Below are positions 8,133 to 57,425 of a DNA stretch of 64,000 nucleotides, in pieces. Source of the DNA: Balanoglossus misakiensis (lineage: Eukaryota; Animalia; Hemichordata). Made by a program: the position numbers and the translations under genes. The notes beneath the pieces were generated by a model that saw nothing but the letters and a program-made list of their open reading frames with translations, was not told the origin of the DNA and searched no databases. The first letter of the stretch is position 1, and every line of letters begins with the position of its first letter. Location of the stretch: positions 5,969,434 through 6,033,433 of the forward strand of contig CM082593.2 in assembly GCA_040954595.2 (NCBI GenBank). Reading direction: 5' to 3'.

Positions 8133-8220
8133 TACCCTTTCACCGCCATGGTTTGGTCCAAATGCAGTGTTTTCTATGGTAAAGTTGGACCTTTTCAAAA
8201 AGAAATGGGGGTAAAAGGGA
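8133..8220. mobile_element. MITE copy 2 (probably in the eIF4E 3' UTR)
   Basis: ACCCTTTCACCGCCATGGTTTGGTCCAAAT...AAAGTTGGACC...GGGGGTAAAAGGG. Confidence 0.65.
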
Positions 8221-13540: not shown

Positions 13541-14350
13541 AAGGTTTTGTCAGTTTGTTCAGATCATGATGGGTGGGCATATGTTATGGCGTCGCGTCGC
13601 TGCAGCCACGAAAAACAAGAAACACTAAAAATCATATTTTTAAATTTTTGTGGTTTCACGATGTATGAAACGTGTACTTGTTTTGGAAGTAAACTTGACA
13701 CAACACGGCAATAAATTAGACTTATATCTGTAGGTACACTGCACCGCTTGAATTAACCATGTTACCCCATTTTCCGGTGTAAAGACAATAGACTCTAGGG
13801 TCTATGGCAAAGGTCAAGCGTCGGAGTAGGACCAAACTGTGGTGGTGATAGCCCCCCCCCCCCCCGTTATAAAAAATAGCAAAAAGCGATTAGCATTGAA
13901 GGTCACTCTTATCCAACATGTTAATTTGTGTTTATGAAACAAAGAGGAGGTCCCCGGGCGTGGCTTGACCCGTCAAAGTCTGTTAGGTCCTGCTGTGACT
14001 GATGGACATTCAAATATCTCCCCTAATAACAAAGCATGTACAACTAAAACTTGCTTTAAAATCTTAAATTGCATTTTCAAGCTCGGTAAGGTTTAAGACA
14101 GTGACCTCGCGTGTTGCATGCAGCAGTAACATTAATTTATTGATACTCGTAAACCGAGGGAAAATTTGTTTGATGCCGAGGGGTGTTCTTTACTTGCAGT
14201 GGACAAGTGTCGGTCGTATCCCTGGCTGTGGTCAGTCTTGTGTACGTGATACATGCCAAGAAAACTGGCAGTTTGCGCAAGCGCAAGCATTATCGCCACA
14301 CTCTTTGCATCAGTGGATAACCGTACCACGATCAAGGTGACATTGGACAC

Positions 14351-17575: not shown

Positions 17576-21668
<4,093 letters not shown>

Positions 21669-23014
21669 AACACCAAAGTCCGGCCGCCAGACCACAGCTT
21701 GAAGTGATTGGAACTGTGGGTGATGTGTTGCGAGGGCAACATCTCGCCCTTGAAAACTAAAAAAAAAAGAAAGAAAAATAGTCAAATTTGAAATAATCGA
21801 GCCTGTTGGTGTACTACCTGTGTCCCAGTACAATGTATATGTTTTAAGTTGGACTCTTCAGAAAAAAATCAGATGAACATTTTGACAGAAAAACACACTT
21901 TTTTGGTAGACGTAAAATCTCTTGATATGATGAAACAGGGATCTTTAGTTGCGGGGGCAATGCGCAGGCTGTAGTCCAGTGTAAAGAAGGTTGTATCAGC
22001 TCTAATCAGTCTTTTAAACTTACAAAACAATATGTGAATGCATTCAGCATTTTCTATGATTACTGCAAATTGTAACAGTTTGTCAATTTTACAGAGGTGT
22101 GTCACTGATCGCTTTGCTCTCTCTCTCGCAGATGTGTATAAAATGTAGACTGGGTGCAGGCAGCCGATTGCTTTGTTTAGGGGGGGGGGGGGTTTCAGTT
22201 TGTAATTTGGGTAGAAAATAACAATTACTCTGCCTGCCGCATCTCTGTGTTTGTGTAATGAGTTTTTTGAAGTAGCGCATATTGGCTAATGGTACTTAAT
22301 ATGATTTAGGTTATAATGTGGCAGCATGGTTTGTGTGAATTCCAGTGAAATTTTTCATGTAAATTTGAAGGTAGTGTATTGTGACATGCAAAAGACTGGA
22401 CAAGAAGGGTGGGTCTCTAATAATCATCGTTACATTCATTAAGCTTTTTTTTATTAAAAAAAGAAAACAAGTCATTCTTGTACATATCCACCTTTTGCTT
22501 TTAAAATTGTACTGCCATTACAGTGATTTCAGCTCCTTCGAAAGAATTGTTGAAATTTTCCCTCCCCTTTTTGCTGTGTAATTTTAGACTACCCAATAGT
22601 TGGAGGGAAAGGGAGGCGGTCCCATCTATTCTGAGATGTAGGGGGAGGGACAGGGTCATTTGAATGTGAACACTTGGGGAGGGGGAGGGGACAAGACTTT
22701 ATGAAGAGTGGACCCACAACTGTGTACCGTTTTGGCATTGTCTAGAATTACGAGTATCTTGTGTATGTAGAAACAGCTTGGCAGATTAATGTGACTTGTT
22801 TTGTTAGTTTTCCATTGTGGTACTGTCTGTTTTTCTTGTACTGATCTACGCCATTACTTCAGATGGTTAACTCTACATAGATTATAATTCTGTTCACTTT
22901 ATTAAGTCACGCTATGCCATTATTACTTCTAAGGGAGTTAACTGTTCATTTGTCGTGAAAATATGCGTCATCTAGTAGCATAAACGATTCTAGTCCGTTT
23001 CCAAAATCGGTGTT

Positions 23015-23108
23015 TTAACCCTTTCACCCCCACTTCCCTCTATAGAGGTCCAACTTTACCATAGACAAACAATGGATTTGGACCAAACCACGGTGGTGAA
23101 AGGGATAA
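23015..23108. mobile_element. MITE copy 4 (reverse orientation)
   Basis: TTAACCCTTTCACCCCC...GGTCCAACTTTACCATAG...GGACCAAACCACGGTGGTGAAAGGGATAA. Confidence 0.7.
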
Positions 23109-24861
23109 ATAATGGCGTACACTGGTGTTGTACTTACAGAGCAGACGCAGCTGCCCGGCATGTTAAAGAACTTTTATTATTCGGTTGAGGTTTATTGGAC
23201 ATGAAAGCAGGCCTGGTGTGGAATCTGAAGACACAATTGGAGGGGAATTGTTCGTAAGGGTAGATCCACCCACAGATTTCGATATAGTCCTTCAAATTTC
23301 TTCAGTCGTTGCTGGATTTTGGTCGTGTGTCAAATTGACATTGTGGGGCCTACCTTGAAGATGTTGGCATTCACAAAACTGGCCACTGTGATGTCAACAT
23401 TCTCAAAAACGAATTCGCCCTCGCAAGGTGTTTTCTAATCCATGCTTGGTCTGTCGTATAAAACTCCTAGATTTTCATGATTTACTTGTGTTTGTCATAG
23501 AGACAACATGGTGCCCTTTTCTGCTTGGAGTAATAGCCTATTTTATACCATCACTCTTATTATTGGGAAAATAGGTGAGGCAATTACGGTAGTCATTTCA
23601 GCCTTAGTTGTGATGTGTTTATCATGTTTGACGCCCACCACCCCCAGTTCAAGGCAAAATATTCACCTCTCACGGTAGTTCGATAAATGGACTTTAAAAG
23701 TCATTGTTATCATCGCATCTCCTGTGATCCTCTCCAGAACACATTATGCAAAAATCAACAACAACAACAACTCGATACCAACTACTATATTGTACAGTTG
23801 GGCTGAGTTCATTCATGAAATAGACATGCACTGCAGTGTTTGATGCACGGAATAACATGGGAAATTTCACACAACTGTCGCACTCTTCCCTGGTACGTCC
23901 ATGCTCTCCCATGCTTGTCACAAAGCAGATACCATCTGATTTTAATCTGTAATGAATTTCCTGTGATTTTTCTTTTTTCCCCGCCAACTTCGGTGAATAT
24001 TGTTTGTATTCTTTTGAGAAATCCAATTTTTGATGATGATGATGATAATGTCATCCTTTGTAAATTCTCACACAGAAAATAAATAACACCCCTGTATTTG
24101 TTTCAAAATATTTCATGGCAGTCTGTGTATTACTGTGTGTGTGTGTGTGTGTGTGTGCAGAAACCGTTCTATTGTATTACTGTCGGTGAGGTACCAGAGC
24201 CGAAAATATGTGCATGCAAGTTTTATGTGAGTCACTATCTGGACAGTCACCAGGCTTGTCTATCATTTGCAAAAGGTTGAAATGTAGGTGAAATGTGGGC
24301 TTGAAGTTGACATTGACTGAACTTGAAAAAATTGCCAAGAACAATACCCATGTAGCACTCTGTTTCTTTTGATAACAGACGCTTTCATTTAACATTTCCA
24401 ACCCACCAGTTAGGGTTAGGGATTTAGGGGTAAGTGTCCTGTGGGTATATATCCAGGGGCTGCCTGACACATGCATCCCTCAGTTACCCAAACATAGACA
24501 GTTAAGTAAGTAATCAATCAATCAGAAATGAGAGTTGGCACCCCGCCAGAGCTGCAATATTGACTAAAAAGCGTCCAAATCCATGAAAAAACATCAAGTC
24601 ATGATGTCAACATGAAGTTTGCACCATACTGTGTGATGTTTTGTGGGCTCCAGATGGTGATCAGACACTGATGATGACTTGATGACGGTATCCAGATAAT
24701 AAGTTTTTAACTTATTTTTCTGCTTTTGTTGGGGTTTATAAATAGGCATCCAATTTTGGTGTTCATGTGGGCCACCCCGCCCCCCCCCCCCATATAGTAG
24801 GGCGGTATAGTAAAGAGCGCCCCCTTGAGTTCATAGCCCTTGTAACAGTTTCCGCGAAGCG

Positions 24862-24932: not shown

Positions 24933-28056
<3,124 letters not shown>

Positions 28057-30864: not shown

Positions 30865-33800
30865 ATGAAGCCTTTCTTGTTCATCGTCGCCTTGGCAACA
30901 CTATCAAGCCATCGGGTAAGATCCCAGAACTGCAGCGAACCCAAGAAAGGAACCGTCGACGGTGATGTCATCATTGGGGTACTGTTTCCATTCCATTCCA
31001 GCATCGATGGCAGATGTAGTGATCAGATTCCGAACCCGGATTCCATTCAAGTATTGGAAGCGGCAAAGTTCGCAATTTCCAGGAGTAATGAACGCTACCC
31101 GACTTTAACTGTTGGTAGGCGAATACTTTGATTATATCATATCATGCTACCGTCCGCCATTCTGAATGAACGAGAGCTCAATCTGGCGATGCTAACCCCG
31201 CCCGTTTATACTTCATATTTATTTTCTGGCAAACAAACAAACAAACAAACATAAAACTTCGGAATTCGGGGAATCAAAGTCAGAACGGCGCCCCCATGCG
31301 CCCAGTCATCACGGTCAGAGAAACTTCTGCTGTCTGCCAAGTGATGTCGTACATCTCAGTTTTTGCACTTTCCCGTCCGATTCTCTAATGGAAGGAATGA
31401 GCGTAAGTGAGAACAACCATGCAAAGAGTTATATATGCGCAGTTAGTATTCTCCACAAACTCTGTTTCTATACACGCTCCCTGTTTGCATCATCAGAGTT
31501 GGAAATATGGCGCACATGGACACAGACTGCATCGTCGCAAACAAGTGCCTCTTTACGGCCGAGATCTTGAGGTTAAACAGACTATTAGTTGCCTACCGTA
31601 TTTATGGACATCGGGGTTTTTCCTTTACACATAGGTTTGGATGCATGGGACAGTTGTTATTCGGGAGATGTTGCCACTGACCGTTCTCTGCGGTATCTAG
31701 GAGACAAGGTGAAGCTGAGCTACAGCCAGGGTGATGTTTGTCCAAACAGGCGGCTTTACATAGGTGAGTAGTTGGGATGAGAAAATTACAATTTCATTTG
31801 TCTGTAGGCTAAATATGCACAGTCCTCTTGACCAGGTCCTGTGTACAAAACGTGATCGCTGAATGAATTTGTGAATGCATTTCGCCATCACTCTACACCA
31901 TCCTGTTATGAGAGACAAGAATATGCACATTTCTGTTTCAAAAATGCAGGAATGGTTGCAGATGAAACCAGTGTTACATCGAGAGCAGTGGCTTCCTTGT
32001 CAGGCGATGCACACACACCTCAGATATCGTACGGCGGAACCGCGCCAGATTTGAGTGATAAGGAAAAGTATCCCTACTTCTTACGTACTGTACCGGCTGA
32101 TCAGTACCAAGCACAGGTGAGCGATTGTCAATGTCATTTATGGCCACATTTACTTTTTAATATGTAGCTTCACAAACATGAACAAATATCGGCATGGTGT
32201 CAGAGTTGATGAATCCTCAGTGGTGTGTCTTAATTGTTCTCACTGCAGGCTATGGTGGACATCATGAAGCGACTCGGCTGGGTGTATGTCAATGTCATTT
32301 ACACAAAGGAAGATGACCACCAGAGGGCGCTTCAAGCCCTGAAGGACATCGCCGGTGACCATGGGATATGCTTTGCCAGTGAACTTGGCATCAAGCAGGG
32401 GACGACCGTGACCGCAGCGTTTGAGAGCTTCTTGCAGGATTTCAGCTCCAAGCCCAACGCCAAAGCGGTGGTGGCGTTCGTCACCCAGACGCACGCCGAA
32501 CACCTGCTAATGGCTGCCGAGCGAAGCCAACGATCTGATTGGCAGTGGTTGTTCAGCTACGAAGGAATGACCGATCCGAGTGGTCTCGTTCGTCAGGCGC
32601 CCCGTGCAAGCCGCGGCATTCTAGGCATCCTTCCGGCAACTTTCGCGAATCAGGTCGACGCTTACGGCAGCTACTTCCAAAGCCTGACCCCGGAGAATGC
32701 GAGCGTCGCATCAAATCCCTGGTTCTCCGAGTTCTGGCAAGAGAAATACCAATGCAATCTTCCCGGCTCGTCCAGGTTTCCGAGCGCGTGCAACCAGGCG
32801 GCTGTCGACTCACACCAGCAGAATTACTTACAATACCCGTACGTGTCGCCCACTCTGAACGCCGTGGACGCGCTCATGAAGCTCGTACAGGATCTCCACA
32901 GAACAAAATGTGGAATAGACAGTCCCGGTGTCTGCGATGATATGCTGCACACGGATCCAGACGAAATCTCGCAGACGTTGATGCAAGTGACGTTAGCGGC
33001 GGAAAACAATGGCGAAGCTATTAACTTTGATGAGAACGGTGATGTGGAACCAATATACGACATTGCGAATTACAATGGAACATTTTTCTCTCTGGTAGGT
33101 AATGAATCCATGCATGCATGCGATTAGCACATTAATTTACAAGCAAATATCTGTTTTGACAGGATGTAATTTGTTCATGGAAAAATGGTATTACAATTTG
33201 CAGTTGCTGCCACTATTAAAAAAACGCTGTCGTTTTCTTGCAGATCGGGAATTGGACGTCTGGTGTTTTGCACTTGAATGTCGATCAAGTAACAATGTGG
33301 GTAGATGATGTCCCTAAATCTGGGTCAGATCTGCCAGTCTCTGTGTGTGGCACCCCCTGTACTGATTCGAACTGTGGATCACCTGAGGAGAAGAAGGTAT
33401 GACATGAACTCTTCTGTATAAGTCGAACAGGTTAATTAACCCTTTCACCACCATGGTTTGGTCCAAATCCTTTGTTTTCTATAGTAAATTTGAACTTCTT
33501 TCGTGGGAACTAGGGGTGAAAGGGTTAAAGAAGATTTCAGGAGAAATTAATTTAATTGGGTGTTTTATTTTTTGGTCATTCTCAGGTGTATTTGTCTGGT
33601 GACATAATCCTTGGCGGCGTTTTCCCGATTCATGGAAAAGGCAGCGGGGACAGTGAATGCGGCGCGTTGAATCCAGAGGGTGTTCTCCAGCTGGAAGCCA
33701 TGCTGTACGCACTGGAGCGGATCAACCAAGACATCGACGTACTACCGAACGTCCAGCTGGGCATGGAGAGCATCGATTCCTGCCTGAGCAGCGACGTCGC

Positions 33801-36800
33801 CTCGTCCTTGACCTTGAAGTTCCTCAGCACCGCCGACTTCGGCAGCAGCGGCTCCGGCCGGCGGGTCGGCGTGGAGACGGGCGACGCCGAGCACATCTTC
33901 GGGGTCGTCGGGGGCGCCGACGACGACGTCTGCAAGGCGGTCTCCCAGGTCCTCAAGGTGTACATGGTGCCGGAGATCAGCTACGGGGCCAGCATGTCGG
34001 CCCTGAGCAACCCCTGGAACTATCCGAACTTCTTGAGAACCGTGCCCCCGGACACTCGACAGATTGCGGCCATAATCCAAGTGATGGCCCGGATAGGGTG
34101 GACCTACATACAAGCTGTTCACACAGATTCAACTTGTGGATGGGACGGCACCAGTGTGCTCAGGCAACAAGCACCTCCGGTATGTTAAAACTTACCCATT
34201 CCACCCCCAGTTCCCTCTTTAGAGGTCCAACCTTACCATAGAAAACAATTGAGATTTGGACTGAACCATGGTGGTGAAAGGGTTAATTAAAAGTATTCAC
34301 ATTGTCACCACAGCAATGGTTTAACCCTATTATTCTCATTGTTCTGGTAATTGATTCATTTACAGGAAACTGGGTCAAATTTGAGTTCAAATACTAAAAA
34401 CATAAATGTTCATTCTTGTCAGGCTGGTATCTGTTTGACCCAGTACTTGGTTGTTCGAAGCCCAATATCGGACGAGAACATCGACGAGGTGCTTGCCAAG
34501 CTGGCAAAGCGACCCAACGCAAAAGGCGTCGTTGTCATCGGGTCGAGAGATCTCGTAATCGCTCTGCTCCGTGGTATTAAACGCAACAACATGGAAGGAA
34601 AGTTTTATTTGGTGGGATCCGAGGGCTGGGGACAAGAATCTCTTCCTGATGACCTGGCAGAGCTTGCCCTTGGTGAGTTACCCTAATCATGGCAAGAGGC
34701 GTTTTTGCACACTAAAAAATACTGCATTATTTTTCAAGTTTGTGAAAAATGCTAAGTCAGCCATATTGCAGGTTATCTGAAAGTTAAACACTTTGACCCC
34801 CTAGGTGCAGTAACAGTGAGCCAGACTCAGCGCCAACCAGATCGGTTTGTTAGCTCCGTGACGAGCTTGACTCCCCAGACCAACGATAGAAATCCTTGGT
34901 TTGATGACTTCTGGATGGAGAAATTCCAGTGTGTTCTGCATGGTCAGTCAGCAAATTGTCCAGGTAGGTAATTTATTCATACAAGAAAAATATTTACATG
35001 AACAACAAATTTGATTGGAGTTATTTTTACTGTATATTAGGAGACAAAGCCCCTTCTGTGATGGATGACTCGTATCTTTTTACAGATAGTGATCGTTTGA
35101 AAGCCGAAGATATTCCGTTGAACACCGTCGCAAACGTCATAGATGCAGTCAGTGCCTTTGCGTATACTCTGAACGAACTACACGCAGACAACTGCTACCA
35201 GTCTGACAAGGTGTGTGACAGTCTTTCTGACGTCACCGGGGAGAATGTGATTGACACTTTGAAAAGGAAGAGATTTCCGAGCCTGGCTGGTGATGGGAAA
35301 ACGGTGTCGTTCAACTACCAGGGCGACGATAACGGCTACTTTGATATCTTCAACTATGTGCGAGACGGGAATAAGTATGAGTATATCAAGGTATGTCCAA
35401 GAATGAAATGGGAGAAGTGATCCCGGTTTGTTCTTTTGTTATTGATTTTTGAGCAGAAGAAAATGGAGGCCAATTTGCTGTACACACCCCTGAAATTGAA
35501 TGCTATAGACTCACGTCATTGTGTATGTGTAATGATGTGAAATGAACAATATGGAAATGGATAACGTCCATGTGCCTTATTTGGAAATTAACAAAAAGAT
35601 CTGCCAATGAAATTTCAGGTCGGCACCTATGACATGACCGCCCAGCTCCAAATGGCCATTGATATCACCTTTTACAAAACGGATGGAGATGCGATGGCGT
35701 CACCACCAACATCAGATTGTGTTGGTCCGTGTGATGACTGCAAGACTGTTGAAAGGGCAAAGGTCGCGGAAATATCTGGGGGTGACATCTGGATTGGAGG
35801 TATTAAAATTTGATTTCTGCATAACATGTCATTTAATGTTCATACAAATGTGAGTATTGTAGGAAGATTCAATTTCTTTCGTTACATGTTAAAGTTTGTT
35901 TTTGCTCTCTCCCATCTAGGCTTATTTGAAATACGGAAGCCAGGTGAAACATTGATCGATTGTACCGATGACCTGGTCATGTACAACATGCAACTTTTGG
36001 AAGCGTTCTTCTTCGCCGTGGATCAAGTCAATGCGGATAACGCTACCCTTCCAGACGTGAAACTGGGTGCGATTGCGTTTGATACGTGCGGCCTGGTGGA
36101 GCGGGGAGTTCGCGAGACGACAAACTTCGTCACTGGCGGCGTGGAGTACCGCTCGGGCTATCCGCCGGCGCGCGTTCGCGTCAGCGGCGTGATCGGAGGG
36201 AGCACCAGCGACGTGTCGCTCGAGGTCGCCCAGGTGCTGACGTCGTTGCAGGTCAGCCAGATCAGCTACGGCGCCACGTCGGAGACGCTCGGCGACCGCG
36301 ACGACTTCCCGTTCTTCGCGAGGACCGTGCCGTCGGACGGCGATCAGGCCGCGGCCCTGGCGGACGTCATGAGCGCGCTGGTTTGGAGGTACGTCTCGGT
36401 AGTGTACACCAAGAACGAGTACGGCCGGGACATGCTCGAGGAATTCGTCGCCGCGGTGAAAGACAGGGACGTCTGTATCGCGACGAGCCTGTCGCTGGAA
36501 CCTGACGCGTCCGATGAAGAGTTCGGGTCTGTGGTAGATTCGTTGCAGTCTCAGCTGCAAGCGAAAGTAGTCGTACTCTTCACCAGTGACATTCAGACTG
36601 GAAATCTGCTGCTGTCTGCTGAGAGAAAGGGGCTGACGGATGTCCAGTGGTTCGGGACTGAGACGTGGGGAGACCGTCCGGCCGTCGTCGAGAACGCGAC
36701 GTCCACCTCGCGCGGCGCCATCACCTTGCAGTTCAAGAGGAACCCCTCGGACGAATTCAAGGAGTACTTCACCGCCCTGCAGGCGTACAGCAACCCGCGC

Positions 36801-39800
36801 AACCCCTGGTGGTCCCAGTGGTGGATGCACCACTTCCGTTGCAACCTCAACGTCTGGGGCGTGGAGAAACCGTTCGACGTTCCCTGCCCGTGGAACCAGG
36901 GTCTCTCCGAGGGCTTCGTCGAAGAGGCGGACGTCGGGTACGTCACCAACGCCGTCTGGGCATTCGCCAAGGGAATGCACGCCGCCATCCTCGAACTCTG
37001 TCCGAACAAAACCAACCACCTCTGCCCGGAAGTTGTCCAGAACCCGGAGATCCTCAATGCTAGGATCCGGGAGGCAAGGTTCAAAGGTCATGGTGGTGTG
37101 GATTTCAGTTTTGATGATATTGGAAACGGGCCTGCAGAATATGATATTTTGAATCTTCAGGTACTGAATGGTACTACACAATACGTCAAGGTAAATATTT
37201 CAAATTCACATTTCATCATGTTATGTATACATGAAGCCTGAAGATTAAAAATCATGACAGAATTTCATTATTGAGATTATTCTTTATTTTGGTAGGTCGG
37301 GGAATGGAGTTCAAGTGTGATGAACTTGACTGCTGAACAAATCAAAAGCTACGATGCTGACGGCAATGCCGTGCGGTTACCAACGTCTCGGTGCATTGGT
37401 CGATGTCTGGAGTGTCACCGGCTGTCGGCCGAGTCGCCGAAAAGCGCTGAACTTTCCGGGAGACTTCAAATAGCCGGACTCTTCAGCGTTCACGAACGAG
37501 GCGATCATCGCGTCGAGTGCGGCGAAGTCAGGGAGGATGGAATTGCGTACGCGGAAGCGATGATGTACGCCATCGACAGCATCAACGACGATCCCGCCGT
37601 TCTGCCCGGCGTCACGTTGGGCGCCACCGTTTTCGACACGTGCTCGAGCACAACGCGCGCGGTTAGAGAGCTGTCCGGGTTTCTCAGCGGTGCACATTTC
37701 ACCGATGTCAACTCGCCCCCGTCGACTTCCTTGCCCGTCATTGTTGGCGTCGTCGCCGCTGAGAATAACAAAGATGCAGCAACGCTGGTCCAAACAGCAG
37801 ACGAGTACAAATACACCCTGGTGAGTTGATGAAGATAACATTTTTAATCGTTTCTGAATGGTCAGCTTTGCTGCAAAAAATAAAATCATTGTGTGTTGTG
37901 AGTCAGTAGAGACTGTGTGTGTTTTTCGTGAGAATCTGAGATACAGAAATATAATATATTATTACACAGGAATACTTGTGTTGTCTATATGGTTAAAACT
38001 ATTTGTTACGCGTACATGTCTCAAAAATAATTGACCTTTTCTCCTAGGTCAGCTATGGTGCAATGACTTCGCTGCTAAGCAACCAGGACGTTTATCCATT
38101 CTTCCTTCGTACTGTTCCGAGTGACGAGAATCTTGCAGATGTGTTGATTGATGCAATCTCTCATTTTGGATGGTCCTACGTCTCTGTTGTCAGGTCAGAT
38201 GACATGTACAAGAAAGCCGGTGAGTGTGGCTTGTTTTTCATTCACGTGTTGCGTCGCTTTTCTCTTCACAGTGGAGTGAAGAGAAACCAAGCAGTGCATT
38301 CTGGGAGAATCTGTACAGCCTCACAAACTCACACAGGATCATGGGATGCAAAATGAGGGGGCAAATATCAACCAAAATGGACCAATCTTGTTGTTTTTTA
38401 ACTCAAATTCTGCTTGACGTTTTTAGAAAACATACACAGGCATCAGATGATGTGGAGAGTGGAAAAATTTATTTCTGATAGACGTACAATATGGAATCTT
38501 CTTTCTATACACAGAAATGGAATTATTTATGCGTAAAGCCACGGAAAGCCAAATCTGTTTAGCTACAGTTGTTGAAATGGGTCCTATGATTGGTGTCCCC
38601 GCTGCTGTTGAGAAACTTTCTGAGTTTGGTGACACTGGTGTTGTCGTTTTATTCACCCATCCTACCGACACTAGAAACATCGTGCAGCAGTCAGCTTCAG
38701 GTGCCAAGAGACATTTGTGGGTTTTCACGTCTGACGTCACGCAGCCGTCATTCTGGCAGGGTGGAGTACTGCCCCCTAGAGGTGGACTCTCGATTCTTTT
38801 GAGTTCGGCAACCGACCTGCAGCAGTACTTCGGCCGGCTGAAACCCGAGGCGAACGAGCGAAATCCGTGGTTCGCCGAATACTGGCAGGACAAATTCAAC
38901 TGCAGTCTGCCGGGAGAGAATTCACACTCTGAAAATTGCAGCCAGTCGCTGAAGATGTCAACACCGAACTATCCCCTGGTGGGTCATGTCGTATCAGCAG
39001 TGAATGCCGTCGCAAGAGGAGTGCACGATTTACTCACATCGAAGTGCGGTCAACAGGGCATGTGCTCCCAGTTCATTGCCTCCACACCTGAGGAATTCCT
39101 TGAGAGTGTCAAGTCAGTTGCCTTCAGTGGTTCAGACGGTCTGTTCAAATTCACGGACGGACATGGTCCGGCAAAGTATGAAATCTGGAGTATATCAGAC
39201 ACTGTTTCCACCAAGGTATGATGTATATTATGATTTTCAACTTTACCCATTGCATATCCTCAAATGTGTAGGGAGAGTCTCGTATTTCTAGTGATATCTT
39301 TCTGAATACATGTTACTCGGAATGATTTTGTGCCAGATTGCATAAAAATTTGTCTTTGATTTAGGTCGGATCGTGGGGCGAGGGCTCCCTTTCAATACCT
39401 TCCCAGCCAACGGCTCTACCAGCTGTGCCCAGTCTTCCTGACGTGGATTGCAATGCTGTGGATTGTCCTGTGTGCGTGCGCCAGTTGCTGCCGCCGTCAT
39501 CGACAGTGGCCACCATCAACACCCGAGGAAACCCCCAACCACCTGTTACCGGGATGCCGGCAGTCACCACCCGACCGGAACCACAGCCGGGAGCAACAAC
39601 GAAAGCCGGAAACACGAGGAAGCCACCAGCGCCTGTGATTGGTCGGACCTTCAGCCTAGACGGTGAGAACGACGTCTGGGCCATCATTGTTCTGTGTTTG
39701 ACCGTGTTGGGGGTCGTCAGTTCAGTGGGAGTTTTGGTGTTTTTCCTCCTCAAACTCAAGCATCCGGTCGTCCGGGAATCCTCGTCCAGTCTCAACATCG

Positions 39801-41253
39801 TTCTCCTGCTGGGAATCGTCTTCCTTTACTTACTGAGCCTCGCCTTCGTCGCGGAGGAGAGTGCCGTGTCGTGCGGTATTCGCCGGTTCGGTCTCGGGTT
39901 CTTCTACGCGATGTGCTTTGCTGCCTTGTTCGTGAAAATTGTACGCATCTACCGCATCGGGAAGTACGAGAGGCGCATCTCAGGCCCCAAACCGAAGTAC
40001 ATCAGTGCAATGAGCCAGACCATTTTTTACGGGGGTGTCATGCTGAGCGAGCTGCTCCTGGTCGTCGAGTGGTTGATCGTTGATCCGGCAGACGTTGTCG
40101 TCAAGGGAGACAATTTCGTGTGCAGGCAAACCACAGGGGCATTCATTGCATCACTGTTGTATGTCTACCTCCTCATCGCGGTGACAACAGTCATTGCATT
40201 CCTGGCGCGGAGGTGTCATGACATCTTCCACGAAGCCCTCTACATTTTGATTTGCTGTATAGGTATGTCTGCGTCTTTTCTTAATTTAAGTGCTGCCTTT
40301 TTATTCCAAAATATGACGATTCTTATTTGTGGATACGATTTTGTTTTCTGACCACTCTGATATCCTGTGTTTGTCTAACTGTGCAGAGTCTGTGCATATT
40401 GTACTCTTCTGTATTACGCATTTTAATGATTAAAGTGTGTGCTGGCCTAGAAATTGCCTCCCCCAATATCAACGAACAAAAGCTGTATTGTCACATTCTA
40501 TTTCTAGGTTCCATCCTGACGATAGTCACCTGGGCTCTCGTGGCTACTCTCGGACCCGACGGCTATGAGGATCAGGCCATCTGTTTTGGAACCCTGCTCA
40601 ACGCAAGCCTGATTTTGGCGTTGATGTTTGCGCCCAAGATTAAACTCATCGTCACCAAGCACGAGTTTTTCGACAATGCCTCCATGACGTCAGGCATCAC
40701 GGTCCAGGACGGCCAGACAGCCGGGGCCTTTCAAAACCCAACCTACAGCGTCTATGGAGCTGCAGAGAAAGGTGAGTTTATCTTTCAAGTTAAAGTAATA
40801 CACACAAGACAGTGAACAGACAAAAAGAAGAAGACTGCTTGGTGTAAGTGTTGTGTTTTTAACAAAATTCAGCAAACACGGCTCCATGTGTTCTATTTCA
40901 AAAATAGTTAGCAATCCTGCTCCACATTCGACAAAAAAGGGTTATATTTTTTACATATTTACATTCATAAGTATTAAACATACATACACTCATACACACA
41001 GGAAACCTGGCTAAACAAGGAATAATCTTGTTTTCTTAAAAAAATATTGTCTTTTCATGAGCTTTACAGTTTGATTGATAAATGGATTTCAGTCTGTTTG
41101 TTACCAATTTGATGAAAATTCACTATTAATTCTATTGTTACAGAATACTCTGAAGTTCACAAAGAAGAAGCACAAGACTCAATAGACTCATTTACAGCTG
41201 ATCCGGAACACATTGATGCACATGTCACAGAGCATAGTACCACAGCTTTGTAA
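30865..41253 (+). CDS. Class C (mGluR/CaSR-like) GPCR with four tandem Venus-flytrap domains, ~2339 aa
   Basis: 17 exons: 30865-31114, 31635-31763, 31950-32116, 32249-33094, 33244-33396, 33586-34179, 34423-34672, 34805-34963, 35041-35390, 35619-35799, 35920-37190, 37296-37820, 38048-38219, 38515-39215, 39365-40262, 40508-40771, 41144-41253. Total 7020 nt, all GT-AG and phase-compatible. One signal peptide, four copies of the GD-I-G-F / DSC or DTC / SYG / RTVPxD / NPW motif series, one class C 7TM ([28 protein letters not shown]), C-terminus STTAL. Confidence 0.88.
33436..33528. mobile_element. MITE copy 5 (best preserved; GPCR intron 5)
   Basis: TTAA CCCTTTCACC...GGTGAAAGGG TTAA: perfect 10-bp terminal inverted repeats between TTAA duplications. 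Confidence 0.8.
34192..34286. mobile_element. MITE copy 6 (reverse orientation; GPCR intron 6)
   Basis: TTACCCATTCCACCCCC...GGTCCAACCTTACCATAG...AACCATGGTGGTGAAAGGGTTAA. Confidence 0.7.
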
Positions 41254-42493: not shown

Positions 42494-43225
42494 CTAGAGA
42501 GGCTCTGGTTCCAATTTTGCATAGGGTGGTAGTTTAGTCGTTGGTAGTGGTTGACTTGCATGTGTCTTCAGTTTCTGTATTCTCTTCTTCGTCTACGAGA
42601 AATAATATAATCAGTAGGTATGACCATGAAATAGACTCTACCAAGTCAAGTAGAACACCAGTTCAGCGAATGAAACCGTCATTTTCGTCGCTGGAGGCGC
42701 ACTCACCTTGGTAACGGCTTCTCCGGCCAACACCAAAGTCAGCGTGTGGGCACCGTCGAACTTCACGTCCACCTTCTTGAAATATTTCCCCTTCTTGACC
42801 GGCTTCCAGCTGACGCAAACGGCCGTCTCTTCCAGGTTTCCGAGCAGCCAGTATGTCACGGGCATCGAGAAGCCCTCATCGCCGGGGAATTTCGACGAGA
42901 CGACTAAATCACGAGTGAAGTCAGACGGGTTCTGGATGAGGAAACGCCTTTTTCGCCGCCGACCGATCTTCACCCTGCCAAAGTGGATAAGAGTTGGTCT
43001 TTTGTGTTTCGTGTAAGTTAATCTCATCACGGGTATTCCGCGAAGAACGTCGCCGCCATCATTCGGTTGGGTAAGCCACGTCGTCTTTCGTGATTTTAGT
43101 CTTTTGCTTCCATTGGATGTATCGCCTAGGTTACTGTTGTCGCGGTTACCAACCAATTTCTGAGAGAGAGGGAGAAGGAGGAAGAGAGAGAGTCAGACAT
43201 TCACAAACGGATGGATGGATGGATG

Positions 43226-43286
<61 letters not shown>

Positions 43287-45487: not shown

Positions 45488-48400
45488 TCACTGCAGCTCA
45501 GGGTACGCTTCCATTCGTTGCTTGAGGCGGTTCTTCAGTGCTTCAGACATGGCGTTGTACTTTTCTGCAGAAAAAATTGAGATATAAAGAATGAACAACT
45601 CTCTCACGACAAACTTTACCAAATCCGTTTAAATCTCTTACCCGATTTCTCCTTCTATCATTCGCTGTCACCGTTAGCTGTAATTTGATAATTTTTGTTG
45701 TTTTATAGTTACTGAATATTTTGATCTTACAGCTACGTCATACACACATATGCATGATGAGTCACGTGATCGACAAATGGCATCCAATCATGGTGTTCTT
45801 TCTTTCACGGGTTCAGTGGGGTAAAAAACAAAAGAAGTCACCTTGGTCATAGCTGACGTAGTGCCTTTCGCCTTCCCCTGCAGTTGTATGAACGCTGTAC
45901 CTGTTCACCAAACCGTTGGATGATGACGGGGATTCTCTGGGCGAGTTGATACCGGAGTCGGTCTGTACGGTTTCCACGTTCTCGAAGCGGTAGAAGCTCG
46001 GCGGGGGCGGGGGCGGCGGTGGTGGTGCCGGCGGCGGCGGAATAAACGGAACGCTGCCGTTCGCAGAGTCAAACTCCACCGTGCTCTCGCGTCCACCAGG
46101 TGCGTTGGGAAGAATGGCTGGCGGTTTGCTCTTCTGCATTTGACCTTTGCTTGGGGTCAAAAATCGCACCTGTTTTTTCGTTTTCTTCAAATGTTTCGGC
46201 CACTCGTCGTGTCTGTAGTACTCCTCATCCTCATCACTCAGTTGTTCCTGGACCGCGTCTCCGAGGCTCCGTCTCGGCATTTCCAGCGGCACAACATCGT
46301 TTGTACCCGTCAACCAGGTCCGACTTACATCGGCGACGTCATGCCTGCTCCTCCTGGAACGAAACTGTGTGTCGTCTTCGACAGTATCGTCGTCAACTGC
46401 GTAGTAATCGCGTTCAAAGTTTGCCATCAGCTGGAGAATGCGGTCATTTACGTTCCCCTTTCGCCTCTCCTGGTGCAACTGTTCAGATTTTGCGGAGGTC
46501 GTGGATGACGGCGGTCGAAATTCAGCGCTCTTTTCAATTCTAAATTCCCTTGAAGATGGTGGCGGACGATTTTCTGCGATTCTGGTGTCACGAGATTTGG
46601 GTTGCTGTTCCTTGCGTACATGACTTTCATTTCTGACATCGTGATGTGTCGTCTGCTGACTTTCTGATCTGGTTTCAACGAAGTAGCCGCGACTTGTGGA
46701 TGCCGTTGGATTTTCCACGAGATGAACAATTCTGACGTCACGAGTCAAGGAAGGAGGTAAGCTTTCCATCTGATTTTCAACTCTGACGTCACCGCTTATA
46801 GGGGTTGGCAAATTTTCGGGGGAATTAATAAATTTGACATTAGCAACCGGGGCTGGCTGGTGACTTTCAGCGTGGTTTTCGGCTTCGACGCCGCGTGTCG
46901 AAGTCGGGGGATGGTCTCCATCTGTCGTTTTGATTCGAATCACCATATTAGTTCTGTAATGACCAGTGGTTGGGTCGTCACTTTTACTTCTGGCTACGGA
47001 CTCTGTTCCTGCTGTTAAGGGGTCCTCCCATGCCTCCGCTTCGCGGGGCGACGGCGCAGAGCGATCCACCTCAGTTATGCCGCGATGCGACGACATGTCA
47101 GACTTTTCGACCGTTTCGCTATTTTGCCGATGAACCATCGCCTCGATGGAAATCATCTTCTGTTCTGACCCTTCGCCGTCCGGAGACGACGGCGGGCTAA
47201 AATCGACGTTCCTGCTCTCGATCGGCGGGCTGGTGACAACCATCAACGGTTCAAAGCTTTGCGCGCCGCCGTTCATCACAGTATCCGTTCCCGCAACGGC
47301 TCTGTCAGTTTGCGCCTGGGCGTCTCCAGTACTGCCACCACTGTTTTGAGACACAGGAACTCTCGTGTCCAGCTTTTTTGCAGAAGTGACCTGCCCCGTC
47401 CTCTCGATGCCCATGGATTCATCGACCCAATTAAAGCTGTCTCCGAGAGTCTCGTTGTCGATGCTGTTGGCTTCGCTGCCGTCAGGCGTCGTTTGAGCAA
47501 ATTCTTTCTTTTTGAGCATCCAGTTTTCACCATGTTCGTCAAAACTGTTTTCAGTAGTACTGGGTCTGTACAACAAAAATGTAAAATGTAGTGTTGTATG
47601 TTCAGCAATCCCAAAACCACAAAACTAAATTAATGCCCCGAACTTTATGTCACTGCGTTTGGTCGCATTTTCCTATTGAAATACACCACGTGGACACTTA
47701 CCCTTGGTCGTATTTTGGCGGGGTGTAGTTGTCCATTTTGACGGCATCACTGAGAAAATGTTGCCTTGATCTGAGTTGCTGTTCGTCGTCCACTTCGGGT
47801 AATGCTATTGTTCCTACGGTGAAAGATATAAACGATATAAGAAACAATGTGGGGACTTTTGCGCTCCTGATCCTGTTTGGGGATAACGTCATGCGTAACT
47901 TTAGATTCATAGAGTGGTTTTGTTTTACATGGGATTTGAATTGAAGGGAACACTTGCCAGGTGGCCAGTGATATTAAGGTTGGTTTTGATTGGCCAAGTC
48001 ACTCTTCAAAGATGTTAACACCAGGTGCACACATACTGTATAAAACAAATGATTTACTGACTTACTATTTGTAGGCGACTGGAAAAGTTGCCTTAGAGGG
48101 GTCGGCGTTGTCTCCGTAGCCGTCGTGCCTTTCGCTCCGTCCTCGGGGGAATTCTTCGACTTCCCGCCGGTCTGTCCCAGGCTGGCGCTCTTCTTCTCGT
48201 CGACTTTAATTTTGCGCCTTTGTTCTCTGGACAGCGATTTGGATTTGGGGAAACGGGACTTCTTTTTGCCTCTGTGTTTGGTTTCCTTGTGATAAAAGTT
48301 AGACAGAAATTCAGACAGCAAGCACAGAATAAACTCCAAAATATCTGGCCCAGACGATAAAATGTTTTACGAAGAGCATCTCAGTGTAATAAAACAATCT

Positions 48401-51400
48401 GGACATCTGTACCAGTTCTACTACTGGTCGCGCTGTGCTACAAGAGATAGAACGCTACGTAATGATGCAAACGAAATCAAAACATAAAACCATAGTCGAT
48501 TATACTAACCCTCTCGTATGCTTTGAAGTTTCTCATAATGTCTTCGTCGATGGCTTTCAGCGAAATAATCTGGCTGACCACTGGCCGAGCCGCGTTCGGC
48601 GTCCGCGCCCCAGCTAGATAAATGATGTCATAAAATATAGACTTTTATTCATAAAAATCTACAAAGATGACGTCACTGACCAGATCCACCCGACAATCGA
48701 ACTATTTCTGTAACTCCACACACATTCAGATTTTCGACAAAAACTAGGAAATGTACCCCAAAGTGCTAGAAGAATCCCCTCCCCCGAATATGTAAGAGAT
48801 CACATACCCTCTTCACCTTCACTCGTCGCCTTGGTAACAGTGACGAACTTGGGATCGATAACTTTGCCACCAGTCAGAGATAGTGCATACATATTACATT
48901 CCTTGTTGCTCCCCTGGATGGCTAGCGTGTATGGAGTATTGCCGTTCTGAAAGAACACATCAAGGAGTATAAATACATAGCTATGGGTGTCAGTCATTCA
49001 GTCAGTGTCTGCCTGTCTTACCTACCTTATCAGTGGAATGTACATCGGCGCCCTCATCGACGAGAAACGACAGGCACTGAACCTTCCCCATCTCAGCAGC
49101 ATAGTAGGCGGGTGTCCGGCCCTGGTTATCCCTCACGTCAATGATGTTGACCTTACGGGCAGTGTGTTGATTTACCATCCATTTCAGACAGTCCACGTGA
49201 CCTCGACCTGGCAAATATGACCAAGAGGTTACGTAAGGAAACATAATATTATGTGTGTCTGGCTTCTGGATATTTGTCGAGACTGACTGGTATGGGATCC
49301 GTGTTGGCCAACCATGGTGACCCTCCCTCGATGATTTCAGAGGGAAGCTGTTGGGAGGGTGGTTGTAAGGGGGGTCGCATACCAGGGTGAGACACTTATC
49401 TGCATTTCGAGCTCTTTTTTGTTAGTTTGGAACCCCCCCCCCCCTAATGGGTATTCTACCGGGGTATTCTAACCCTTTCATGGGCCAGGTGTTTGGGAAA
49501 AAGCACCCCTTTTTCTTGTTTTCATGGACCGTGGTGATGAACAAAACACCACTTTCTCCGTGACTTGGAGAACACGCATGGCTGCCCATTTCCGCCGAGA
49601 GTGCCACCTCTCGTGCGGAGGAAATCTGGACGACATTTCCAGTGATGCGAACCTGAAGTTCGTTGCCATAGAGAATCGATATTTTTGTAATTTACGTATC
49701 TGTCACTATCGCTTGGTAATCCTTTGTCGCCTCATTATTAAGACCAATTAGAGTAATAATTCTTTCTTATAAGATGATTCCCCGAAAATATTTCTCGGTC
49801 CATGGATCGGGGCGGGAATAGTGTGAACACCGTCCATACTAATGTTTCTCATACGAATGGCCCTTTCATGCATAAACTGGCCATAAATTCTCCTCAACGC
49901 GTCACCTAGACCTTCAGAGTGGAATATATTGGTCTGTTTTTGGCATGATTGATAGCTTTGCATTTCCGCCCACAATAGCACAGGTTTGGAACCATTCTTT
50001 GTGCGATGTCCACCAACCGAAGCGACAGCTTCAGAAGCCAGACAAAAAGGTCTGTTTCATATCAAGACGCAAACATTTTCTCTGGGTTAAGGGAGGTCAA
50101 AGGACGTTTGCATACTTCAAAACAGAACCAAAAAATTCCTTTGGTTGAATCCTGGATTTTTTTCGAGTTTGTTTACTGACCGGCCACAATGTGCAACGGT
50201 GTGATGCCGCCGTCCATCTTGTCCAAAATCATCAAGGCGCCCATCTTGGCGAGGACCCATTTTAGAGTTTCAATATGGCCGCCGACGGCTGCCGCGTGCA
50301 GCGGCGTTGCCCGGGTGAAGCTTCTCAGACTCCTGGGATTCAGCTGACCGTGTTCGACCATGTATTTCAGACACTGTAAATTGCCACTTTTGGCTGCGTA
50401 ATGAAGTGGCGTCTGGCCTGAAAATAAAACAGTATGGGAAGAAAGTACAACACAAAGAAATTAACCCATGCAGGTGCGAATATGATGGGAGATATGGAAT
50501 TGATTAATACGCATCGCAACTTTTACATTAATAATTGATGTGTGTCATTTTTCTCACATTGTAAAGAATAGAGTGTACTTTTTTATCGTTCTTACCTTTG
50601 TTGTCTCGCGATGCAATTAGTTTAGGTCCCAATTTCGTCAGCAGTTTGACTATTTCCATCAAACCTGCAACGTGATGATAGAATGGACGATTAATTGACT
50701 TATACAACATCGGAGTCTCAGAATAAAAGGATGAGGAGACTGGAATTATGAGTGTACTTTGAGAAGACGGAGGGTTGCTAAGGGACGTGGAATTGGTACT
50801 TTCATCCTTAACCGAGTTACGCTAACCACGATCCCGCCACACACGGGACGGTGCACTTACCCTTTTCTGCAGCGATGTGCAGTACCGCCATTCCGCTCTT
50901 CGTTCTCATACCAGCGATGGTTCCCTTGTACTCCATCAGTAGCCACATGCAGATGACCACGTGACCGTTGATGGCGGCCAAGTGCAGCGTCGTCAAGCGA
51001 TCGGCGTTGCGGTCGCAGGCGGCGTCGAGGGCGTTCTCTTCCGTCGTGAGCAGCATCTGCAGGCACTTGAGGTTCCCGCTGGCCGCCGCCACGTGGACCG
51101 CCGTGTCCTCTTGCTTGTTCTTGGCCCGTTTCGGTATACACGTGTGCGTCAACAACCACCTGTAGGAGATGAGGCCAATTCATGAAATATGGTACATATT
51201 ATATAGCTCATGTTTACACTGACTGTGTTCGTTTTCAATATCTTGACATCGGAAATGCCTACCGTCTGCGACAAGTCAGGCTGTCCAGAAATCCAACCGT
51301 AGACATGAAATGAAAAGACAGGATACTACAAAGTCGCATAATTAAATTTGATAACAAAATGTAGACCGTTCAAAGATTTTTGTCTTCTAGTTTCTTTTAA

Positions 51401-52644
51401 CTTTTCCCTCCCTGCCGACCCATCTTGTCATCAATTGGCCTGTGCGAGGACAGAGACAATAAAAAAAGGTAACACCAAAGCGAGTTTAAAACGATTCTTC
51501 TCAGTGCGTAAACGGCCCCAGGGGAGTCATCTACAGGGAGTCTGGATTGTTCGGACAAATGCGGATTCACAAAAGATTGACCTTGTCGGTGTGATTGTGT
51601 GTGGTTTATGTCATCCGGGGCCTCAAAGAAAGTGGTCCGCGCGCACACAGATGCGCAGTGACCACGGGCACGCTTGGTTGGCCAGTTCATGAATAATGGA
51701 TTCCAGCCTTGGTTTTCTCGACCCCGAGTCGGTACAATCATTGCGCTGAAAGCATTAACCTTTTGGGTTTCAACCTTCCGGATCGATTACTCGATTGAAA
51801 ATTTCAATCAAGTAAGCCAAGGTACTGGTTTGTTAGTAGGGAGGGACAATTCGGGCACGGAGGGGGAGGGGCTTAATTAAACGAAAGTGGTATTTACATG
51901 GATATACTCGTTGCAAGTTAGCCTATGACTAGATCGATGGCAATAGGCTGGTCAGTTCACAGATTAAATACACCACTCCGGTTGAACTGATGGGTGTTTG
52001 GCATATTCAGCATTTCTCGATGTGAACAAATAGGGGTGACTTCTGACCCCCCTGTCCAGGTGATTTCTCCAAATTGTGAGTCTCACCGGACGGAGGCATT
52101 TCACCTCATGTTAGATCATCAATCCCGACCCTGGATTTTCCAATTAGCTCGTCCTTGATTGATGGCAGCAATTAAGGTCTTGCTTACAAGCTTTAGCCAT
52201 TGGAGAGTGCGTTGAAACAGGCCTACCATGTATTAGAAATAATGGGTGTACTGTACGTGCATTGATTACAATATAATGTACACGACCGCGAAAGATACAG
52301 CATTATTGATATCACGTTATTAATCTTATGTTAAAGTTCTTTGGCCAATTTCTCAAGCTAACATGTTGTGTAAGATTGTACACTTACCTGATGCAGTCGC
52401 CTTTTCCAGTTTTGGCCGCCACATGTAACGGCGTGTTGCCGTTCACATCCAACATGGGAACACCTTCCTTTTCGAAAATGCTCGGGAACGAGTCGACATC
52501 TCCGGTGTAAGCCGCTCTGTGGGCCGGCAGGTTGACGTAGACGAACGCCGTCTGGCCAGCTTCGACGCGAGTGGCGTCGTCGGAGGTGGGTGCTGGTAAC
52601 GGCGTCCTGACGTCCTCGGCGGTCGGGTTGTTGCCGTCCGTCAT
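45488..52644 (-). CDS. Espin/forked-like ankyrin-repeat protein with a long disordered, proline-rich C-terminus, ~1139 aa
   Basis: Exons 52388-52644, 50861-51159, 50596-50664, 50181-50417, 49026-49207, 48808-48946, 48510-48613, 48066-48285, 47702-47813, 45842-47565 and 45488-45564 total 3420 nt in frame. About 9 ankyrin repeats (TPLHVAA, TAVHVAA, TTLHLAA, AVLHIAA, TPLHYAA, TPLHAAA, TPLHIVA, TPAYYAA) in an espin-like series; PPPPAPPPPPPPPP tract. Confidence 0.75.
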
Positions 52645-53813
52645 CGTGGATCCCGGTGTTTGTGGACGGTACCCGAGCGAGTGAAAAGCCTATGACCGTG
52701 GATGACCCGAGAATTCCTGCGAAGAGAATAAAAAGGCGGCCTTAGAATAATATGCGGTGAGACCGCGGGGCCATCATTAAACCCAGTAGCAGCGTGAGCT
52801 GCGTGGTTAATACGACTCAACCCCTCCGCAGAGTCGAAGCGCCTTCTCAACGAGTTTCTTTACAAGTTTTAATAAAAGGCGCATAATACAAAAGTGGGAT
52901 GACCCCGAGAGGTCACAGAAAGACTGTACTGCTGAATGGAATGACCCAAATTACCTCTTCAGCATACCCAAGGTTTTATATTGATGTCCCATTACACCAC
53001 TGCAAAACTAAGAAACTATTTATAGGTAAAACAGACTGAGTGTTGATCAACACAACGTACATGGTTTTCAGTAATTCCTGTTCATGAACTTAAATTTGAG
53101 TCATTTAGGCTAAAATTAAAGGCATTTGAGGACGTGTATTGTATCATCTCACCAAGTTCCCTGTTATATGTGTTATTAAAGTACAATAATGTTCATTTTC
53201 ATTAGATCTCGTGGATGGTATACATAGTTTGAGGTCAGAGTCATGTTCTGTATGGGCATAGCAACAGGTGGGACGCTGAACTCAGTGTCTGAGCCCAAAC
53301 TTTCGGTCATTTTCTGTGGTCTTTTAACATTAACAGTTGACAGAGTTCCCGAGTCGTAAATTTTATGACGTTGTAAAGGTGAAAAAAAAGTGCGGAGGGT
53401 AGAAGTCAAACGACTGAGTGTGGAGCATAAAACTTTTGAAGACAAAAGCAATCGTTGTCGAGTTGGAATTAACGGGTCGTGATACCTGGTTGGTTGTAGT
53501 GGTGGCGGTGAAGTCTTTGCACTCGTAATATCAGAATGGGCGTCTCGGCTTTCTTAAGATGCGTGGGCGAAAGTAAATATCTTACGACAAAGACCCGAGT
53601 TGTTTCAGAGGGTGTTGCTCGCAATTAACGCTGTAACTTGACTAGCACCACCCAAGGCATGCGCACGTAGTTATTAAAAGTAGATCACCCGACAAATTAC
53701 ACCTTATGGAATCTCGAACCTTGTTGGTATATTTGAAACTATTGTTTCGCGGCGTTTGATACCCTCTTCTTGTGTCTCATTTCCTCTGTCAAGTGTTATG
53801 TAGTGTTTGTCAA

Positions 53814-53852
53814 TCTGTCTGTCTGTCTGTCTGTCTGCCTGTCTGTCTGTCT
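53814..53852. repeat. (CTGT)n microsatellite
   Basis: Directly visible. Confidence 0.85.
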
Positions 53853-57306: not shown

Positions 57307-57344
<38 letters not shown>

Positions 57345-57352
57345 TGTGTGTG

Positions 57353-57425
<73 letters not shown>
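57307..57425. repeat. (GA)n microsatellite, interrupted
   Basis: Directly visible; source of the ERER and SLSL ORFs. Confidence 0.95.

Follow-up and report, generated by a model that had tools for sequence, protein, structure and literature searches.

G-protein-coupled receptors (GPCRs) of class C are described as carrying one Venus-flytrap domain (VFT) per chain, working as dimers and, except for GABA-B, using a rigid cysteine-rich lever (PMC5719802; here and below, papers given by PMC number are cited from excerpts). A locus at 30865..41253 of a 64,000-nucleotide stretch of the hemichordate Balanoglossus misakiensis, hereafter the window, raises the question of whether such a receptor can bear four VFTs on a single chain, or whether neighbouring receptor genes have been run together. 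Sequence evidence confirms that the locus encodes one gene, with four VFTs chained above one seven-transmembrane (7TM) domain.

One gene rather than several

The gene model comprises the following parts.

30865..41253, + strand: whole gene, 17 exons, 2324 amino acids (aa) in the preferred model
30865-31114, 31635-31763, 31950-32116, 32249-33094, 33244-33396, 33586-34179, + strand: exons 1-6
34423-34672, 34805-34963, 35086-35390, 35619-35799, 35920-37190, 37296-37820, + strand: exons 7-12
38048-38219, 38515-39215, 39365-40262, 40508-40771, 41144-41253, + strand: exons 13-17

An AG acceptor and a GT donor were found at 17/17 exons, and the phases join from the ATG at 30865 to the TAA at 41253, in keeping with a preliminary description that had proposed 17 phase-compatible exons in one frame. 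The joined frame has a single stop, at its terminus, while the remaining two frames of the same coding sequence hold 91 and 96 stops. GC content is 0.54 in the coding sequence (0.63 at third positions) versus 0.36 in the introns. The length of about 2339 aa given in the preliminary description had to be shortened: it corresponds to retention of acceptor 35041, and alignment to three orthologues speaks for 34805 as the acceptor of exon 8 and 35086 as that of exon 9, for a total of 2324 aa. The upstream acceptors, 34772 for exon 8 and 35041 for exon 9, were rejected because they add 11 and ~10 residues relative to the orthologues.

Merged gene models do occur, as in the Polypterus protein P0034, with 10 ANF_receptor stretches, NCD3G and an internal 7TM, and tandem receptor genes or their relics could in principle have been fused here by the gene model. 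One point counts against the single gene: Ptychodera flava, the nearest relative with 64% identity over 967 aa, has a partial public model only, spanning 956 aa from mid-VFT3 to just past the first transmembrane segment (TM1). This identity, together with the trees, also suggests an enteropneust source for the window. The exon 8 and exon 9 acceptors were chosen by homology only. We nevertheless regard a fusion artefact as highly improbable. The VFT2/VFT3 junction lies inside exon 10 and the VFT3/VFT4 junction inside exon 12, as the preliminary description had noted, and the sole 7TM stands at the end. The VFT1/VFT2 junction falls at intron 5 (189 bp, phase 0), which is free of AATAAA and ATTAAA and has no ATG in the reading frame of exon 6, and the aligned orthologues run uninterrupted across it. 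These orthologues are colinear with the gene, module for module: four ANF_receptor stretches and one 7tm_3, with no NCD3G, were found in seven proteins of six ambulacrarian species (Glandiceps, Saccoglossus, Amphiura with two, Anneissia, Acanthaster and Holothuria), and for the first three a full-length alignment gives identities of 55, 48 and 33%. Related frames were also met in Logan records, with 2847-2848 aa in contigs 8840-9219 nucleotides (nt) long and 2802 aa in 9030 nt; since these frames fill nearly the whole contigs and leave scarcely any space for introns, we read them as spliced RNA of relatives. By tblastn, no second locus with related sequence was found within the 64-kb window, a result that applies to the window and not to the genome.

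Domain layout

Pfam was applied to the 17 exons singly, and the joined protein was scanned with a VFT profile built for this analysis, from which the aa ranges of the four modules are taken.

30865..30935, + strand: start codon, putative signal peptide (aa 1 to ~20, by eye) and conserved N-terminal cysteine C23
30952..33393, + strand: VFT1 with three-Cys knot, aa 30-514; core amino-acid-binding positions 3/5; loop cysteine C119
33589..35759, + strand: VFT2 with three-Cys knot, aa 517-998; core positions 2/5
35772..37433, + strand: VFT3 with three-Cys knot, aa 1003-1481; core positions 5/5
37449..39490, + strand: VFT4 with three-Cys knot, aa 1487-1943; core positions 2/5
39476..39676, + strand: stalk of 67 residues, 37% Pro/Ser/Thr, from the last cysteine to TM1, where a nine-cysteine domain would sit
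39668..40653, + strand: class C 7TM, aa 2003-2249, from Pfam, hydrophobicity and the match to mGlu2
40654..41253, + strand: cytoplasmic tail, which contains an NPxY motif and ends in T-x-L

Four successive ANF_receptor runs were found (exons 3-4; exons 6, 7 and 9; exon 11; exons 12-14), with 7tm_3 in exons 15-16 (PF00003, E 1e-38 on exon 15) and NCD3G in 0/17 exons at E<=0.1. Seven hydrophobic segments score >1.8, all beyond aa 2000. The preliminary description, which had put four VFT modules on one 7TM with no full NCD3G and no transmembrane segment between modules, agrees with these results. In the tail, the NPxY motif recurs in 3/3 full-length hemichordate rows; the T-x-L C-terminus resembles what we take to be a PDZ ligand, and the meanings we attach to both motifs are assumptions. 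An AlphaFold2 model of exon 11, made without an alignment, reached a mean predicted local distance difference test score of 36.9 and a predicted template modelling score of 0.28 and was not used.

The putative ligand cleft of VFT3

Ligand positions were mapped through a HMMER alignment of exon 11 to mGlu3, with Y/F and D/E scored as matches and with mGlu3 ligand-residue numbers that we assume to be correct. The core positions of VFT3 are S1108, T1131, D1151, Y1179 and E1259, and the full five are present in 9/9 ambulacrarian rows. The ambulacrarian maxima in the other modules are 3 for VFT1 (8 rows), 3 for VFT2 (8 rows) and 4 for VFT4 (9 rows), with 3, 2 and 2, respectively, in this gene. VFT3 is also the best conserved module, with a mean identity of 0.46 versus 0.32 for VFT1, 0.37 for VFT2 and 0.33 for VFT4. 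It is without the glutamate-specific Arg (8/8 rows) and Lys (9/9 rows), in place of which this gene has Leu and Asp; the residues at the mGlu Arg/Lys positions of modules 1-4 read V/Y, Q/T, L/D and Y/L. Class IV mGluRs, with the same Arg/Lys loss, have been predicted or shown to be unresponsive to glutamate (PMC6307864). To judge from the cleft residues, VFT3 may bind an amino acid.

Knots, stalk and transmembrane domain

A three-Cys pattern follows the module at 47/49 junctions. From its last cysteine to the next module there are 8, 10 and 11 residues in this gene and 8-14 in 25 ambulacrarian junctions. Since the lobe-2 cysteine is kept in all four modules, each knot is likely tied back to its own VFT, a pattern that we take to be that of mGlu receptors. 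The stalk between the last knot and the membrane measures 24-95 residues in 14 multi-VFT rows, versus 2 and 13 in two single-VFT controls.

A further cysteine, located in the loop that follows helix B, is present in 16/16 first modules, 0/45 second to fourth modules and 3/4 fifth modules. Within this gene only VFT1 has it; mGlu3 has one there too, presumably at the location of the cysteine that links mGlu chains. An inter-chain disulfide is described for mGlu receptors (PMC5719802). Positions of helices B and C are largely hydrophobic in modules 1-4 (0.79, 0.71, 0.71 and 0.60).

The 7TM matches mGlu2 at E 3e-25, the best among the matches listed (60 of 67), GABA-B2 at 9e-9 and CaSR at 1e-5. 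As the closest solved relative, mGlu2 covers TM1-TM6, and the alignment includes the TM3 Lys/Arg and the TM6 Glu, which presumably have a role in G-protein coupling. Conservation of the 7TM among hemichordates is 59-65%. No GPRC5 appears among those 60 of 67 matches. An affinity to GPRC5, considered because of a RefSeq name, was rejected: the Mytilus 'GPRC5C-like' piece matches mGlu3 at 4e-12 and GPRC5D at 9e-4.

Family, distribution and age

A HMMER search with VFT3 listed 150 proteins, 144 of them new; among the new ones, a layout of two to five VFTs with a 7TM but without the nine-cysteine pattern occurs in 25, and a single VFT together with that pattern in 36. Pfam counts of VFTs agree in 15/17 proteins checked, and two rows scored by the profile as two-VFT show a third, partial stretch. 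In a 7TM tree of 77 rows, all 37 multi-VFT rows form one clade (ultrafast bootstrap (UFBoot) 100, SH-like approximate likelihood ratio test 100), apart from 37 single-VFT rows. This tree excludes P0137, whose 7TM is short, and P0076, which has two partial ones; P0094 and P0147 were retained as 'other', and GABA-B, GPRC5 and GPR158 stand outside all trees. An approximately unbiased test on an earlier 17-row tree rejected a grouping of the ambulacrarian rows with two mGlu-like rows (p 0.004).

The multi-VFT clade spans hemichordates, echinoderms, molluscs, an annelid and chelicerates. Its public models are mostly 'uncharacterized', which bears out the suggestion that unannotated invertebrate relatives may exist; of ten names looked up, seven read 'uncharacterized' or 'hypothetical' (in Babylonia, Bulinus, Limulus, Dinothrombium, Centruroides and Ornithodoros). 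Paralogues occur in Amphiura filiformis, with two four-VFT receptors (P0006, P0029), and in Centruroides vittatus, with two (P0066, P0072). No chordate, insect or nematode member was seen among the named hits, where no test of absence was made. Drosophila CG32447 is a possible insect member; two papers give it only as a class C orphan. Searches of the ESM Atlas returned generic 7tm_3 and ANF clusters only. Like the rest of the family, this gene has a VFT number between two and five, three-Cys knots, no NCD3G and a 7TM within the one clade; by sequence it is a member of an old multi-VFT class C family, not a one-off.

The per-VFT phylogeny that the preliminary description had suggested (69 modules, excluding P0040, which has weak modules and no 7tm_3, and all P0034 modules except one) places ambulacrarian modules 1, 2, 3 and 4 each in one clade, with UFBoot 100 (8, 8, 9 and 9 rows). 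These per-module clades across hemichordates and echinoderms indicate that the array is older than their split. The four modules of the gene share a mutual identity of only 25-28%, and a phase-0 intron at one aligned column is common to all four. We infer from the sequences that a single unit was duplicated internally to give the four modules, before hemichordates and echinoderms parted. Module 1 of ambulacrarians joins protostome first modules with moderate support (88/98); the deep relations of protostome modules are poorly resolved, and tick rows carry a long-branch warning. A multi-VFT ancestor probably existed before the protostome-deuterostome split.

Some listed proteins depart from this layout. 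P0038 and P0039, from unionid mussels, have two VFTs, one TM helix and a low-complexity tail with no 7tm_3, and their first module groups with the first modules of the multi-VFT family; they are possibly a single-pass offshoot of it. P0080, P0104 and further two-VFT rows are likewise without 7tm_3. P0040 (EukProt, 2795 aa), in which four ANF_receptor stretches are accompanied by a cysteine motif resembling that of ephrin receptors and by several TM segments, with no 7tm_3, is probably an independent multi-VFT design.

Possible modes of action

How might four VFTs act on one 7TM? For every functional step, we tentatively infer, as the most likely reading, a two-chain sensor for an amino acid that is not glutamate, with VFT3 sensing and VFT1 as a cap. 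The linkers of 8-11 residues would stack the modules head to tail as a rod, and two chains would lie side by side, joined at the tip through the VFT1 loop cysteine. An L-amino-acid-like ligand would close VFT3, with VFT2 and VFT4 serving chiefly as spacers or relays. Because a flexible stalk stands in for the rigid cysteine-rich domain (CRD), closure would alter the spacing of the two 7TMs and not act through a lever, and one 7TM would then engage the G protein. Several observations sit uneasily with this proposal. A flexible stalk is hard to square with a rigid-CRD mechanism (PMC5719802), and the VFT1 loop cysteine may be bonded within the chain, to the co-conserved N-terminal C23, and not to a second chain. 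The intact motif moves between phyla, being found in modules 2 and 4 in Mytilus and in modules 1 and 5 in P0008, and two tick-type rows reach <=3 core positions in any module. The hemichordate TM3 Lys and TM7 PK motif are altered in most echinoderm rows.

The complete amino-acid motif in two modules of some spiralian-type relatives, Mytilus and P0008 each among them, would suit a receptor that integrates several ligands, an alternative also raised in the preliminary description: every VFT would have its own small-molecule or ionic ligand, and their inputs would be summed or gated along the chain onto one 7TM. The position and structural cysteines of all four modules have been kept since the hemichordate-echinoderm split, VFT1 of this gene retains 3/5 core positions, and bacterial BvgS homologues with <=5 VFTs have been proposed to integrate signals (PMC4352136). 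A conserved second ligand would, however, be expected to leave a conserved cleft, and the clefts of VFT1, VFT2 and VFT4 vary among ambulacrarian orthologues while that of VFT3 is constant, over the eight mGlu-defined positions compared; we consider such multi-ligand integration possible but doubtful. The invariance of the VFT3 cleft (9/9 ambulacrarian rows) speaks against a rod of VFTs that extends from the cell and binds proteins or matrix, serving in adhesion or as a decoy or scaffold while ligands drive little G-protein output, as do the hemichordate conservation of the 7TM and its match to mGlu2. Such a role would fit the long, variable, Pro/Ser/Thr-rich stalk, the drifted 7TM motifs of echinoderms and the two unionid relatives, whose two VFTs are carried by one TM helix instead of a 7TM, but it appears unlikely.

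The preliminary description had envisaged VFTs pairing within one chain. In such an arrangement, VFT1 with VFT2 and VFT3 with VFT4 would form mGlu-like cis dimers and a monomer could signal. The even module number in ambulacrarians and chelicerates and the mostly hydrophobic helix B/C positions of every module would be compatible with it. Five-module relatives are common, however, the mGlu-type loop cysteine of this gene is confined to VFT1, and linkers of 8-11 residues seem too short to bring lobe 1 side by side with lobe 1. A lone ligand-bound monomer would also be without the 7TM-dimer rearrangement that class C receptors require (PMC5719802). We therefore disfavour cis pairing, which strikes us as quite improbable.

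A bolder proposal, which we advance as speculation, is an undescribed class C branch with the age of the protostome-deuterostome split. Its two to five flytraps, differing in specificity, would form one antenna gating several nutrient or neurotransmitter signals, and would activate the 7TM across the flexible stalk by another route than the CRD lever that mGlu and CaSR use.

Genomic surroundings

A dispersed repeat of ~97 bp forms an inverted pair (33432-33529 and 34194-34290, 82% identical) that flanks the phase 0-0 exon 6; further copies lie at 23014-23112 and 8125-8219. The pre-mRNA of 33420-34300 folds as a long stem enclosing exon 6 (z -10.3 vs 20 shuffles), which might promote the in-frame skipping of the first half of VFT2, or its circularisation. 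Rfam gave no match in the window, whose other features are as follows.

1345-1758, - strand: ABCG-like exon, upstream, no Pfam match
5053-5349, + strand: eIF4E exon, upstream
12068-13549, - strand: single-exon bZIP gene, upstream
~19681-20560, + strand: calcineurin-like phosphatase, upstream
~26577-27800, + strand: WD40 gene, upstream
42641-43192, - strand: ASH-domain exon, downstream
45816-52700, - strand: ankyrin-repeat gene with a long low-complexity exon, downstream
59519-63008, - strand: ADAMTS-type gene with TSP1 repeats, downstream
27697-27811, 43226-43286, 53814-53853, 57307-57425: simple repeats (TGA)n, (GATA)n, (TCTG)n and (GA)n, respectively

The phosphatase presumably resembles PP2A and the WD40 gene RACK1, and we take the ankyrin-repeat gene to be espin-like.

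Comparison with known receptors

The protein has two hallmarks of class C, an ANF-type VFT N-terminal to the 7TM and a 7tm_3 domain of seven hydrophobic helices. For dimerisation, obligate in class C, the sequence offers indirect signs only, namely the VFT1 loop cysteine and the hydrophobic helix B/C positions. Compared with mGlu1-8 (PDB 2e4u mGlu3, 2e4z mGlu7 and 7epa mGlu2), VFT3 matches mGlu ectodomains best, at E ~3e-64 versus 4e-38 for CaSR, and both its lobe-2 cysteine and its backbone motif for amino acids are retained. Unlike mGlu receptors, the chain has four VFTs rather than one and, where the nine-Cys CRD would stand, a three-Cys knot; its stalk is long and flexible, and the glutamate-specific Arg/Lys are lacking. 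Its 7TM also does not nest among mGluRs of classes I-III but stands outside the single-VFT clades, whose rows are mostly without assigned names. Class IV mGluRs and insect mXR-type receptors, invertebrate relatives of mGlu, offer a parallel for VFT3 only, with backbone-binding residues kept and Arg78 and Lys409 lost, and the excerpts of PMC6307864 mention no multi-VFT layout for class IV. P0002, a single-VFT insect receptor with NCD3G and no Arg/Lys pair, groups with single-VFT receptors and not with the multi-VFT family. The 7TM of this gene joins none of the 37 single-VFT receptors with a CRD, P0002 included, in a set without a labelled class IV reference.

Like GABA-B, the receptor is of class C without a CRD (PMC5719802); unlike GABA-B, which has one VFT per chain and is heterodimeric, it carries four, and the GABA-B match to its 7TM is far weaker (E 9e-9 vs 3e-25 for mGlu2). 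It is closer to mGlu than to CaSR and lacks the NCD3G of the CaSR, V2R, T1R and GPRC6A group (VFT3 4e-38 vs 3e-64; 7TM 1e-5 vs 3e-25). Bacterial BvgS and EvgS, whose VFTs presumably belong to another structural class, are histidine kinases and not GPCRs, and serve as an analogy only. They carry one to five tandem VFTs on one signalling chain, and BvgS is an intertwined homodimer (PMC4352136).

Five public models belong to the same family, all of them automatic predictions only: XP_077999772.1 (Glandiceps), XP_002735016.2 (Saccoglossus), XP_072050832.1 (Amphiura), XP_052073189.1 (Mytilus) and XP_022240041.1 (Limulus), each with 4 or 5 ANF_receptor stretches, 7tm_3 and no NCD3G. Of the family accessions, only XP_002735016 was met in print, in a tabulation of GPCRdb entries that were misclassified: GPCRdb has it under mGlu, and a classifier consistently placed it elsewhere (PMC5568607); XP_002735016 and 209901 are missing from 12 supplements of PMC6307864, which use other Saccoglossus identifiers. 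In the literature searched, which left out most subscription journals, multi-VFT receptors of class C were found nowhere described, so that an earlier mention is possible. Multi-VFT GPCRs go unmentioned in excerpts of PMC12716839, PMC6307864, PMC1192796, PMC6829134, PMC9138782, PMC4352136, PMC3971589, PMC5719802, PMC11584096, PMC7042368, PMC6408891 and PMC4302439.

The family offers a natural test of VFT-to-7TM signalling where no CRD intervenes, and could show whether several ligands can be integrated by a single GPCR chain. The asymmetry between a proposed VFT3 sensor and VFT1 cap points to the first domain to screen, and since members occur in ticks, snails and bivalves, deorphanising a multi-VFT receptor would bear on the physiology of these animals. 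Metazoan ectodomains have been described as three stereotyped layouts (PMC12716839), a pattern from which this family departs. The four-VFT design is apparently a new architectural variant of class C GPCRs, in a subfamily undescribed and known only as automatic models; with the multi-VFT layout kept in hemichordates, echinoderms, molluscs, an annelid and chelicerates, it points to an overlooked subfamily and not to a single oddity among the known receptors.

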